The position numbers and the translations under genes are program-made. Source: an uncultured virus (IMG/VR IMGVR_UViG_3300047564_005685) (Duplodnaviria; Heunggongvirae; Uroviricota; Caudoviricetes). From it: DNA of 64,000 nucleotides. Below the pieces are notes generated by a model. The model did not search any database. It worked only from the letters and a program-made list of their open reading frames with translations, and had not been told where the DNA came from. The stretch is taken from IMG/VR virus record IMGVR_UViG_3300047564_005685. One strand, given 5' to 3'. Below, piece by piece: positions 11,243-15,116 of the stretch (position 1 is the first letter of the stretch; every line of letters begins with the position of its first letter).

Positions 11243-11824
11243 CTAGCGAACTCCACTGCGCAGGCCTCGACGCATCGAGACATGAACGTGGGGGTAGACG
11301 CGCTTGGCAAAACGTTCGGACTCCTCGGGGCTCAGCTCGATAGCGAAGCCGCCCTTCGTGGTGATCTCTTCCGTAGCCCCAAAGCCATGACTGTCCAGGA
11401 GCAATGCGGCAGACGTGGTCAGCGGCTTTGAGCGGAAATTAGCAAAGGAGATCCGCGTCCCATCCGAACGCCCCCGATCGCACCAGAGAGTGCGGAGCCC
11501 GTGCTCGCCTGCAATGTCCATGGCGATACGGGTGACCTGTTTTTCATCGCGGGGATAAAGCAAGTCGTAAATATGCTGCATCTCAGGACAATGCACCAAC
11601 AAGCGGTGGTCGTCATAAAAGCCGCGTGTGGGGATCGTCAGGATTTCGCTCTCCAGCTGACCCGGGTATGACGCACGCAGTTGCCGCTGGATATGGCGCA
11701 AGTAGGTTAACTCGAGCTCAGAGCGCTGCAGCATCATCCAGGGGCGTCGCTTCCTGCCCAGGTGCTGAATCCTGCCGCTCCACATACAGTAGCTGAGTGC
11801 GGTGGCCACGAATTGAACTGACAT
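11243..11824 (-). CDS. Degenerate LAGLIDADG-like protein
   Basis: IYDLLYPRDEKQVT...GLRTLWCDRG resembles the LAGLIDADG_2 linker and second helix; the first helix lacks the acidic DG (ALSYCMWSG). Confidence 0.5.
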   Translation of the reverse strand: MSVQFVATALSYCMWSGRIQHLGRKRRPWMMLQRSELELTYLRHIQRQLRASYPGQLESEILTIPTRGFYDDHRLLVHCPEMQHIYDLLYPRDEKQVTRIAMDIAGEHGLRTLWCDRGRSDGTRISFANFRSKPLTTSAALLLDSHGFGATEEITTKGGFAIELSPEESERFAKRVYPHVHVSMRRGLRSGVR

Positions 11825-12425
11825 CCCACTGGTTGCTGTTGAACAGGTGTTGGCGACTTCTCGGTGCGTAAGAGCTCAGGGCATCCTTGAGCTTGCGAGA
11901 TTGCTCGGCGTCAAACCACAGCCGGGGCCTGACGCGCTCAAGATCGACCTGGGAAACGGCCCCCGTGAGCATCTCCAGCCACTGCTGCACCAGGAGCGCT
12001 TCCTGCGTGCTGAGCCCAACGCGCGCCAGTTCGGTCGTGCCGCCGGCTTGCGGCCGAGCGCCTTCTGCCCAGAGCCACGCGGCTGCTTGCGCCCCGAGCA
12101 TGTCGATCACCGTGCTGGTGATCCGGCGCTCGCCGCGAGGGTACAGCAAGTTGTAGATCGGGAACAGCTTGCTGGTGGAGACGCGAAATCGCAGGACGGG
12201 AGTGGTCTTGCCATTCGAGCGCGGCGTCGTGTTGTAGGGAACAATCTGGGCCTTGGTGGGCAGAAAATGGCGGAAGTCGGCGACCTTATCCTCCAGGAAT
12301 GCGGACTCCGACGGACCAGCGGTCAGGGTCAACTGCACATAACCCCCGCCAGGAGCGCGATATGGGGCAAGGCTGCCGTCCGCCAGCAGCAAACCCAGCA
12401 GGCCCCGGACGTCAGCAGCGTCCAA
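11718..12425 (-). CDS. Free-standing LAGLIDADG-family protein
   Basis: LLGLLLADGSL first helix, IYNLLYPRGERRIT linker, AAAWLWAEG second helix; AGGGAG RBS before the TTG start. Confidence 0.75.
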   Translation of the reverse strand: MDAADVRGLLGLLLADGSLAPYRAPGGGYVQLTLTAGPSESAFLEDKVADFRHFLPTKAQIVPYNTTPRSNGKTTPVLRFRVSTSKLFPIYNLLYPRGERRITSTVIDMLGAQAAAWLWAEGARPQAGGTTELARVGLSTQEALLVQQWLEMLTGAVSQVDLERVRPRLWFDAEQSRKLKDALSSYAPRSRQHLFNSNQWDVSSIRGHRTQLLYVERQDSAPGQEATPLDDAAAL

Positions 12426-12515
12426 AGTTTCTCCCTATAAAACACTACTATAGTAAGAGACAGGAGGCGCTTAGCGCGCTTTCTCGTACCTTGACAATTT
12501 GGAGCGTTTCATCCC

Positions 12516-13142
12516 ATGTGGATTGATAACGATTTTCCGAAGCTGCTTGGTGCTGAGCTTTATCGGCCACATCCTTCTTACATCGTTGAGATGGCTGTGG
12601 AGCCGGTTGTTGTGCATGATTTTGCTAAGCAACCGGGACAGACTGTGCAACTTGATCGATACCGCTTCTGGGGTGCTCCTGGCACCAAAGATAGCCGTGA
12701 ACGCACAGCTGATCAAACGCTCGGTACCGCATCTTCGCGTAGCATCGTGAAGGATAAGGTTCTGGTTTCTCTCAAAGAATATACCGGACCCGCAGATCCT
12801 ACCGATGTTTCTGCACCTTCTACGTTCAAGATCGCAAGGGAGACCTTGCTTACCGCCCAGCGCATGTTGCTGGATACTGGTAATCTGAATGTCTTCCATC
12901 AATCGATCGGAAGCCTTACGCTTTTGGACGATTATCGCCGCTGGCGCGATCGCGTCTTCTGCGATGAATTGTTCAAAGCTGAAGGCAATGGAGCTGCAGA
13001 TAGCACCAAAGGTGGCTACTACTATCCGCTGAAGAAAGCAAAGGCGTCTTCTGCGCCTTTCCTGACCTACGCGGCTGGTGAGTCGGCCAAATTCGATGTC
13101 AAGACCGACCTCCTCGAGGTGGTCAAAGACATGCGCAAGCGT
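12516..13142 (+). CDS. Major capsid protein, exon 1 (N4-gp56-like by recall)
   Basis: 209 codons ending ...KDMRKR at the U of a group I 5' splice site; HDFAKQPGQTVQLDRYRF capsid-like motif. Confidence 0.75.
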
Positions 13143-13494
13143 AAAGTAGTTGCGCTCGCCTAGGGCAATCTAGGCGCAAACATCCGGTGAATTGCTGGAA
13201 CCCCTTCTTCGCGTTCATCTCCCTACAACGTGGCCGGCGACGGCGAGCGTGAATGGTTGAAAAGAGGTGAATAGGGCGATCAGCAGCCAAGCTGGTCAGG
13301 AATGACTAGAAGGTTCAACGACTAGGCCGTACCCTCCAGGCCGGAGGATGAGGGCCAATAGCGCCGGAGAGCTAACACCAATGCTCTACGAAGATGGATT
13401 GGGTCAATAGAGGCCGCGGGACGCCCCATGCATTGGTGCTCTAGCTCAAGATATAGTCTACGCCCTGGGGATGAGAAACCCAGGGAGCTACGTG
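13143..13494 (+). mobile_element. Group I intron 1 (352 nt, no ORF)
   Basis: P GAATTGCTGGAA 13189, Q GATCAGCAGCC 13278, R GTTCAACGACTAG 13313, S AAGATATAGTCT 13448. P1 AGCGU/GCGCU with U.G wobble; terminal G at 13494; removal restores the frame. Confidence 0.9.
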
Positions 13495-13716
13495 AACGTC
13501 CCCACCTTCGCTGATGGGTACTACCGCTGCATTGCGGATCCCACCGCAATGATGCACCTGCGTCAGAACGACTCCTTCCGGGAGATCGCTCGTTACGCAG
13601 GTAATGGGATGGTCAACCCCATGCAACCGGAACTGGCCCCCAATGCCAGCTTCTTCCGTGGCATGGGCCCTGCTTACGGTCAGGCCGGCTTTGTTGCTGG
13701 TCAGCCCGTGATGCCT
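13495..13716 (+). CDS. Major capsid protein, exon 2
   Basis: 74 codons NVPTFADGYYRC...GQPVMP, phase 0 at both ends. Confidence 0.8.
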
Positions 13717-14822
13717 GAAACCATCGGGCCTGCATGATGCGAGTCATGCAGCAAACGGGGTGAATTGCGGGAATGCCTCCCTACTACGGCAAATCCGCAG
13801 CCAAGCCAGGCCACAACCTGGAAGGTTCAACGACTAGGTCCCGAGAGGAAACTCGGTAATGGACCCACGAGTGCCCCGCTACTTAACCATTTCAATCCAA
13901 GTATCTGCTTCCAGCTTCTTCCGCGTGATGCATGGGGCCCCAGCTCCGTAGGTCCACTGCAGGATCTTGCGAGGCTTGCCGCCAAAGGTCATCGTGAAGA
14001 AGGTTTTGCCAGACGGCAAAACGCGACTGTGTATAACTGGCTCGACGGAAAAGCCTTCCGCCACCCAGCTCGACACAGTAAAGATAATCGCTTGAGAACA
14101 ACTGCAGAGGTATAAAGACTTCTTTTTGGCGCTAATATGGCCATCGCCGTCAAGAAGACCTCTTAAGCAATGCCCCCGCAGTTCACGAGGAATCGTCGAC
14201 GGCAGAAAATGCTGTTCAGTGTTCAAGGTGATCCCTTGGGACACGAGTGACTCAGTTAGCAAGCGACTATGAATCAGGAGGCGCCCCGATGGGCGTTTAC
14301 CTTTTCTCGTCACCCTCTCGCAGGATCCCCTGTAATTAAGCAGTTTTGCCAATCCATTCAGGACATCGGCATCGGGAAACTGCAGCTCAATTGAAGTAAA
14401 CTTCGCATTGGGCTTCAAGGATGTGTGACCATCGGCAGCAAGCAGGCCCAGGTAATAGGCCTTGTCCGGGCTGTCGATGTTCTGGAAGCAGTCAACCCTT
14501 AGATCTCTGTGCCAGGGATGAGCTGTGCCCTGTCCTGGGTGGAGCAACTGGCCGCCCTGCAACGAGCGCCTACAACCGGTGCTCTTCGTGAATGACTGGA
14601 TTCCGTGGCGTTTACGAAGCACAAAGAAACTAGACGTGGCAATACCAAGCAGCTTGGCTGCCTGGGTATCCGACCATTCGGATGCCAGTTTTCTGACGGT
14701 TTCTTCTGAGATCTCGAGTTTAACTCCCTGCATAGCAACGGTTAAGTAGATGAGATAGTCTGACCTCACGGGATGGCAAACCGCGAGAACTGGGGGATAA
14801 ACAACCCCAGGATAACATAGTG
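13717..14822 (+). mobile_element. Group I intron 2 (1106 nt) with antisense homing endonuclease
   Basis: P GAATTGCGGGAA 13762, Q AATCCGCAGCC 13792, R GTTCAACGACTAG 13825, S ATGAGATAGTCT 14750. P1 GCCU/GGGC; P8 CTACTTAACC/GGTTAAGTAG; terminal G at 14822. Confidence 0.9.
13879..14733 (-). CDS. Intron-encoded double-motif LAGLIDADG homing endonuclease
   Basis: KAYYLGLLAADG and CLRGLLDGDG motifs, N-terminal HTH-like segment. ATG 14733 chosen as start; the frame extends to 14769. Confidence 0.88.
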   Translation of the reverse strand: MQGVKLEISEETVRKLASEWSDTQAAKLLGIATSSFFVLRKRHGIQSFTKSTGCRRSLQGGQLLHPGQGTAHPWHRDLRVDCFQNIDSPDKAYYLGLLAADGHTSLKPNAKFTSIELQFPDADVLNGLAKLLNYRGSCERVTRKGKRPSGRLLIHSRLLTESLVSQGITLNTEQHFLPSTIPRELRGHCLRGLLDGDGHISAKKKSLYLCSCSQAIIFTVSSWVAEGFSVEPVIHSRVLPSGKTFFTMTFGGKPRKILQWTYGAGAPCITRKKLEADTWIEMVK

Positions 14823-15116
14823 AGCGGCTTTCTCTTCGAAGGCGTGCGCTGGTTCGAAAGCACCAACATGCCCGAGAAGAGCCTGCAGGTGACCATCACC
14901 GATGCGTCGATCACCAGTGCGGTGACGGTTGCATCCCCGATGCTGTTCTTCGGCCCTCAGGCCGTGGGCGTGGGCATCGGCGGCAACAATGCGCAGATCC
15001 TGCTGAACAATAACGACGATTTCAGTCGTTTCATCATCATGATCTGGTCGCTCTTCGCAGGTTTCGAAATCCTGAACAAGGACTTCGTCACCGTGGCTTA
15101 CTCCTTCGTCTACTGA
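14823..15116 (+). CDS. Major capsid protein, exon 3
   Basis: SGFLFEGVRWFES...FFGPQAVG...DDFSRF...W, typical capsid C-terminal pattern; spliced product about 380 aa. Confidence 0.8.
   Translation, partial: SGFLFEGVRWFESTNMPEKSLQVTITDASITSAVTVASPMLFFGPQAVGVGIGGNNAQILLNNNDDFSRFIIMIWSLFAGFEILNKDFVTVAYSFVY

Follow-up and report, generated by a model that had tools for sequence, protein, structure and literature searches.

A backwards two-motif LAGLIDADG endonuclease gene in a group I intron of a probable cyanophage capsid gene

Results and discussion

A major capsid gene with two group I introns was found in the window (the whole 64,000-nucleotide stretch of DNA that was analysed). The window makes up the first 64 kb of a virus record 87.8 kb in length, which also contains a terminase gene. 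Intron 2 carries in its P8 loop an intact gene for a predicted two-motif LAGLIDADG endonuclease, and this gene is encoded on the strand opposite to the capsid gene. The gene is conserved among relatives, and capsid alleles in which the target site is empty are present. We consider it fairly probable that intron 2 and the backwards gene together form a homing element, with a minus-strand mRNA that would start in the 3' end of the ribozyme and a layout that would spare the capsid pre-mRNA.

The interrupted capsid gene and its likely host

The capsid gene (positions 12516-15116, plus strand) consists of exon 1 (12516-13142, codons 1-209), exon 2 (13495-13716, codons 210-283), which ends in the U of the P1 U-G pair, and exon 3 (14823-15116, codons 284-380). 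Exons 1 and 3 were delimited from the spliced frame and from relatives. When both introns (13143-13494 and 13717-14822) were removed, an open frame of 380 amino acids with 95-96 % identity to uninterrupted relatives was obtained. One uninterrupted relative (L004) matches phrog_1357, a major head protein, in a profile comparison (E-value 1.6e-20), and the capsid protein clusters with Phage_capsid_3/4 in the Atlas at 0.97 in addition to a weak TIGR04387 match. When an HK97-type capsid fold was sought by structure prediction, the model had a pLDDT of 44 and gave no significant structural match.

Among 50,697 annotated phage records, a single relative of the capsid gene was found, Synechococcus phage S-EIV1, whose homologue shares 75 % identity across the first 209 residues of the capsid protein. 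As S-EIV1 is the sole annotated relative, the phage in the window likely has a cyanobacterial host. A search of genome contigs returned 12 phage contigs within unrelated bins, which carried no host information. In the S-EIV1 record (KJ410740.1; L232:4926-6152) the capsid homologue appears as two hypothetical genes, one of them on the wrong strand. Annotators should thus be aware that this capsid gene was overlooked or wrong-stranded even in the record of an isolate.

Structure of intron 2

When Rfam was applied to the 87.8-kb record, two group I introns were observed, both in the capsid gene, and no others. Intron 2 (13717-14822, plus strand) is 1106 nt long, with splice sites at 13716/13717 and 14822/14823 and a terminal G at 14822. 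It matches RF00028 above the cut-off (50.7 bits) and contains a P3-P7 core with the P, Q, R and S elements that characterize group I introns. The 3' strand of P1 is located at 13726-13729, and P7 is formed by 13832-13836 with 14756-14760 (compensatory P7 change in four of ten introns). A U-G pair at the 5' splice site is present in P1 of 8/8 homologous introns. When these eight introns were aligned, 99.7 % of cells in the 5' half of the ribozyme were paired (28-47 % in slid controls) and covariation was seen in P2-P6. Compensatory changes were found in 19 of 40 ribozyme pairs in the eight homologues. These figures used a structure drawn from the window's own sequence and therefore favour that structure. 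Judged from its sequence, intron 2 is a group I intron that is likely self-splicing and would remove itself from the capsid mRNA.

The original prediction had placed the endonuclease gene inside the P8 loop, bracketed by a 10-bp stem of which its TAG stop codon is a part, and this description proved accurate. The 5' arm (13879-13888, plus strand) and the 3' arm (14740-14749, plus strand) are exact reverse complements, and the first three bases of the 5' arm (13879-13881) are the reverse complement of the minus-strand stop codon. Of 200 shuffles of intron 2, 69 contained an equally long perfect inverted repeat (10-mer), so the repeat by itself is within chance. It was assigned to P8 because it is located between the 3' strand of P3 and J8/7-P7, and because pairing is kept while the sequence varies: in nine other introns at the same site (site 283), the arms differ in sequence and retain 7-11 pairs.

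A predicted DNA-cutting enzyme on the minus strand

The endonuclease gene (13879-14733, minus strand) encodes 284 amino acids and is the sole long open frame on either strand of the P8 loop, with 0 stops versus 8-15 in the other five frames. An intact antisense ORF had been claimed from the start, and these counts bear it out. The sense strand across the gene contains 8, 8 and 14 stops, and the Leu and Ser codons TTA, CTA and TCA are freely used. The start ATG (14733) lies 6 bases inside the 3' arm. There is also an in-frame GTG at 14769, which is probably not the start codon, since 13 of the 15 aligned family members begin at the Met equivalent to ATG 14733.

The protein matches Pfam LAGLIDADG_3 (PF14528; E-value 1e-7). 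In the predicted structure (pLDDT 86), two alpha-beta-beta-alpha-beta-beta-alpha domains were seen, with the LAGLIDADG helices at residues 89-101 and 183-197. Both of the proposed motifs are accounted for by these helices, as their catalytic aspartates (D101 and D197) are invariant in 15/15 aligned family members. The two-domain fold gave a Foldseek probability of 1.0 to I-DmoI and intein endonucleases, and the best matches were intein endonucleases, I-DmoI and I-Tsp061I (E-values of 2e-7 to 2e-6). The protein is thus predicted to be a DNA-cutting homing enzyme of the two-motif LAGLIDADG type, which would cleave both strands as a monomer before homing. The folds of WhiA and of the bI3 maturase are also among the structural matches, and a non-cutting maturase or regulator would be in keeping with them. 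We find such a role highly improbable given that both catalytic aspartates are invariant and that copies of the intron exist without the ORF.

At the N-terminus, residues 10-42 form three helices in the model, and Atlas matches of this domain to helix-turn-helix families (0.80) are weak leads. No operator was identified for a putative autoregulation of the I-TevI type, and autoregulation by the N-terminal helix bundle is speculation.

Distribution, selection and decay of the enzyme family

A protein search yielded 14 sequences with 52-100 % identity, nearly all of them 283-285 amino acids long. In loci with capsid exons, 37 of 37 family hits were antisense, and the start codon was just beyond the 3' arm of P8 in 33 of them, which is wherever an ATG was found. 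A set of 52 distinct capsid introns with fitted splice sites was assembled (three junctions did not fit and were left out). Thirty of these introns carry a backwards family gene (17 at codon 31, nine at 283, two at 209, one near 139 and one at 144), four have a sense ORF (the one scanned was LAGLIDADG_2), 17 lack any ORF and one was unclassified, although these proportions are biased as most of the set was found via the enzyme. Codons 88 and 107 are sites of sense-strand nucleases in this same capsid gene family. No further loci were obtained when the site-209 enzyme was used as the query.

The dN/dS values ranged from 0.13 to 0.18 in three unsaturated site-283 pairs and from 0.09 to 0.29 in 18 site-31 pairs, after saturated pairs, including every pair with the window's own copy, had been dropped. 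By this measure, taken on relatives of the window's copy, the backwards frame is under purifying selection, which argues that the endonuclease protein is made.

With exon 1 as the query, 79 other capsid loci were collected; codon 283 is covered in 77 of these, and the intron is absent from all 77. In the capsid tree (modest support) the site-283 intron occurs in three clades and is interleaved with empty alleles. Empty cognate alleles are thus common and the distribution is patchy, as is typical of homing endonucleases. In a co-infection, the enzyme would cut at codon 283/284 of relatives whose capsid gene is intron-free, and in this way spread the intron. Alternatively, its main role might be that of a weapon against co-infecting relatives, whose capsid gene it would destroy, with homing being secondary; interference competition between co-infecting phages is described for the PhiPA3 intron nuclease gp210 (PMC11620839), and here the target gene is essential and conserved and empty alleles dominate. 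This seems improbable to us, as the repeated decay of the enzyme fits a selfish cycle.

Such decay is seen in intron 1 (13143-13494, plus strand; 352 nt; RF00028, 70 bits; spliced frame open), which has no intact ORF. Apart from a deletion of about 770 bases, intron 1 resembles the enzyme-bearing site-209 introns of L170 and L172, and its alignment with the L172 intron falls into two pieces separated by a gap of 770 nt. A relic of the site-209 backwards endonuclease is left in its P8 loop (13372-13429, minus strand), where the first and last codons were kept and about 770 nt were deleted; 12 of the first 14 codons agree with the L172 enzyme. From these alignments, intron 1 holds a decayed sister enzyme. 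The second decayed case is L293, in which the site-283 intron has a 38-base P8 that still contains the last codons of the enzyme and the rest of the ORF is gone.

In a tree of 96 proteins with weak deep support, the cyanophage enzymes are mostly together and backwards genes are found in several separate parts. Since the cyanophage enzymes mostly group, the 37/37 antisense count largely represents one event. The backwards layout would have arisen once in an ancestor of the family and been retained on moves to other introns of the capsid gene. Four proteins that are not intron-encoded group beside the site-283 clade, so the tree does not prove one clade; two of them (L214 and L188) look free-standing and have a C-terminal repeat domain.

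Capsid genes of several relatives (L002/L084, L086, L162, L164 and L299) contain three to six introns. Some multi-intron capsid genes have a sense LAGLIDADG_2 gene between P7 and P3 and a backwards LAGLIDADG_3 gene in another intron.

RNA contigs from a relative

RNA run X1 (a metatranscriptome) contained 16 % of the words. One of its contigs joins capsid exons 1, 2 and 3 exactly, without either intron, and comes from a relative with 92 % identity in exon 1 and 97-98 % in exons 2 and 3. Codon 284 of this contig is AGY, which was found in six of the ten intron-bearing alleles and in 0/75 distinct empty alleles. Because the exons are joined exactly and AGY is confined to intron-bearing alleles, the contig is likely the spliced mRNA of an intron-bearing phage, and it is from this contig of a relative that we infer splicing.

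Three other X1 contigs (87-89 % identical) cover 13941-14733 of the enzyme ORF, and none covers the ribozyme core. Coverage was 2.5-5 fold and the contigs show neither strand nor ends, and thus gaps carry no inference; DNA can also occur in a library of this kind. Among the differences listed to the enzyme contigs, 25 of 33 were at third codon positions when read in the backwards frame (excluding two positions next to an indel). All of these contigs belong to a relative (87-98 % identical) and do not fully settle the strand or the intronless origin.

Codon 284 in exon 3 is often AGY in intron-bearing alleles and ACN or TCN in empty ones. AGY at this codon may serve P10 pairing and mark spliced RNA.

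Orientation of nuclease genes in phage introns

Three intron-motif scans were performed blind to the endonuclease, and the first 80 loci of each with full flanks were used. The counts cover ORFs in core loops between the P and S elements, and the motif of the first scan was derived from this window, which favours its family. The table of Pfam-named ORFs does not include five ORFs with an unnamed host, ORFs without a Pfam name, four long loops without an ORF call and three exon hits with wrong bounds.

The blind samples contained 42 distinct Pfam-named nuclease-type ORFs, of which 39 were sense and three antisense. The statement that intron endonuclease ORFs usually lie on the sense strand is therefore supported, as is the statement that phage introns mostly carry GIY-YIG or HNH enzymes (5/42 were LAGLIDADG). 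The original prediction also held the arrangement to be unusual, and this stood in part: the backwards layout is rare, but a capsid intron of the mycobacteriophage LittleE shares it (see below) and LAGLIDADG_3 genes occur in other phage introns. When distant LAGLIDADG_3 kin near intron cores in other genes were examined, 22 hits were sense and three antisense. The sense kin with a named host were in polymerase, PhoH, terminase, recA and similar genes, and the antisense kin were in capsid-like genes.

All three antisense cases of the blind samples are in major head genes. Among nucleases with a named host, antisense genes made up 3/11 in capsid genes versus 0/26 elsewhere (p=0.021). When all long ORFs were considered and this capsid family was counted once, the counts were 2/12 in capsid genes versus 0/31 in others (p=0.073). 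We also considered a rule that the backwards layout is specific to capsid genes, and this was rejected because sense genes outnumber backwards ones within capsid introns too (8 versus 3). Sense nucleases are common in capsid introns and present in this gene family, so the backwards layout is not required there, and its link with capsid genes amounts to an enrichment at most.

With the gene backwards, ribosomes would be kept off the P8 loop of an abundant capsid pre-mRNA and the level of the enzyme would be uncoupled from that of the capsid. In phage T4, translation of I-TevI from pre-mRNA inside the td intron is described as reducing td splicing (PMC2988022). The orientation could instead be a frozen accident, in which an ancestral gene landed backwards and was inherited without any capsid-linked benefit, and we give this somewhat less than an even chance. 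The grouping of most cyanophage enzymes in the tree, the weaker p value with the family counted once and the persistence of sense nucleases in capsid introns are all in its favour. It accounts poorly for the separate backwards lineages in capsid genes (L277, with an HNH gene; L150/L190; a single-motif gene in L190; LittleE) and for the lack of any backwards case among the 26 blind non-capsid nucleases.

The unrelated multi-intron capsid gene of L190 has two backwards LAGLIDADG genes in addition to sense HNH-like genes. Group I introns with sense ORFs of 350-400 amino acids were also observed in Hsp70-like genes of viral contigs (L241, L253, L254, L272 and L414); these ORFs mostly have no Pfam name, and one is TnsA-like.

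Expression of the backwards gene

An antisense transcript of its own had been proposed for the gene. Minus-strand RNA is logically required, and this part stands; a dedicated promoter is putative, as the candidate -10 element is also present in other introns. A sigma70 scan found 0 sites, and seven terminator-like sites were found versus 3.2 ± 1.8 by chance. No Shine-Dalgarno sequence was present ahead of the enzyme ATG, and inspection by eye upstream of the enzyme did not reveal the motif that precedes the capsid gene.

The minus-strand mRNA would most likely start at a sigma70-type extended -10 in the 3' end of the ribozyme, some 70 nt ahead of the start codon. The candidate element, TGnTAnnnT (14809-14817, minus strand), is made up of the intron's 3' end read in reverse and lies 81 nt upstream of the ATG. 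TGnTAnnnT was found in 9/9 site-283 and 17/17 site-31 backwards introns and was absent at sites 144 and 209. No other TAnnnT hexamer occurs within 260 bases in four of the site-283 copies. It was also found in 8/22 capsid introns without a backwards gene and in 28/62 and 21/62 motif-bearing introns of the endonuclease-blind samples. As a marker of backwards introns the element was thus rejected, because it separates them poorly from other introns. The candidate at 14809-14817 is in large part a common 3' motif of this intron type, and the chance that it acts as the promoter of the backwards gene is about even.

The enzyme could also lack a promoter of its own, with trace amounts produced through read-through or pervasive transcription of the minus strand. 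Such an origin is compatible with the lack of sigma70 consensus sites and of a Shine-Dalgarno sequence and with the low specificity of the candidate element, and the same has been proposed for T4 segD, described as lying backwards beside a capsid gene without a recognisable promoter (PMC2988022). We judge it unlikely, because the called genes for about 11 kb downstream are all on the plus strand, leaving no nearby minus-strand operon to read through, and because the site-31 hexamer retains TA and its final T, with variation at the three bases in between.

A further proposal was that the backwards transcript acts as an antisense RNA on splicing or, more broadly, tunes capsid output. If a minus-strand RNA began at about 14800, it would be complementary to P8, J8/7, P7 and P9. 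The effect on splicing is unsupported, as L293 has the same intron without the ORF; intron 1 has likewise lost its ORF, and conservation follows the protein code. A role of this kind is very unlikely in our opinion.

We return to the reading of a homing element with a minus-strand mRNA from the ribozyme. A broader version would be that capsid genes select for backwards nucleases whose ready-made extended -10 is supplied by the ribozyme 3' end, and that such nucleases have persisted in several lineages unrelated to one another and radiated across the capsid gene. This is a tentative suggestion, which we hold to be rather doubtful; if true, ribosomes in the intron would be a cost that the most strongly translated mRNA of a phage cannot bear. 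An enrichment in capsid genes, should it hold, would provide a rule for how a passenger gene spares the splicing of a highly expressed mRNA.

In the backwards genes of L277 (1444-3216), L105, L190 (1586-2023, a second gene at this locus) and LittleE (L231: 1565-2098), one sense frame has 0-2 stops. The nearly stop-free sense frame of L277 continues into the next capsid exon. The cyanophage copies have no such near stop-free frame. Cyanobacteria are not known to have Rho, and this might explain the stop-rich sense strand here versus the near stop-free frames elsewhere.

Comparison with known systems

The closest precedent for the layout is the major capsid gene of the mycobacteriophage LittleE, in which a probable group I intron, spliced in vivo, is described with an endonuclease ORF (gp14) on the bottom strand (PMC3706429). 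Gp14 is annotated as HNH in the record (JF937101), and its Pfam score is above the LAGLIDADG_3 cut-off. It differs from the window enzyme in its length (177 amino acids), in a weak hhalign probability of 5 % and in its position in another part of the tree, whereas the window enzyme has two motifs, an N-terminal helix bundle, a location in P8 and a family spread over at least five capsid sites. The layout as such is thus already known, and what is added here is its family-wide retention over capsid sites and the selection on the backwards frame, together with an RNA from nature that is likely spliced, the intron 1 relic and an initial count that suggests capsid enrichment.

Romulus_081 of Staphylococcus phage Romulus (JX846613) resembles the window enzyme in its combination of a helix-turn-helix with LAGLIDADG_3 (29 % identity over 74 % of the query). 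It is likewise encoded in a phage intron, where it lies between R and S, but in sense orientation and in a non-structural, recA-like host gene. The two-motif enzymes I-DmoI and I-Tsp061I and the inteins PI-SceI, PI-PfuI and TliVMA are the best fold matches; they share 15-20 % identity, belong to archaeal introns or inteins and have no such N-terminal domain.

For Didymium rDNA it is established that antisense intron endonucleases can have transcripts of their own, as reported for I-DirII and I-DsqI, whose genes lie antisense within a group I intron and are expressed from the opposite strand (PMC3073962, PMC9548176). These are His-Cys enzymes of eukaryotic nuclear rDNA, described with polymerase II expression, poly(A) and spliceosomal introns (PMC3073962, PMC9548176). 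The overlap of an ORF end with the ribozyme is referred to as 'core creep' in one of these reports (PMC3073962). Several group I introns in one capsid gene, as in the window, are also described for crAss-like phages, which are a different phage group (PMC7886860).

No paper on this enzyme family or on a link between capsid genes and antisense orientation was found in a literature search of main texts. With the present data, two-motif LAGLIDADG enzymes gain a cyanophage family whose predicted targets lie in an essential, conserved gene. The intact, deleted and empty states at the same sites also form a natural series in which the homing cycle can be studied.

Neighbouring genes

Two overlapping LAGLIDADG-like genes (11243-12425, minus strand) point away from the capsid gene. 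The first matches Pfam LAGLIDADG_2 and has a degenerate second motif, and the second belongs to no family. Of the 79 other capsid loci, 43 contain at least one of the pair, and almost all of these 43 are intron-free; the pair therefore looks domesticated. Between this pair and the capsid gene, a conserved element with a near-palindromic TATAGT box (12440-12455) is a candidate two-way promoter. Further along the window (38000-64000), the GC skew steadily turns positive where minus-strand genes predominate.
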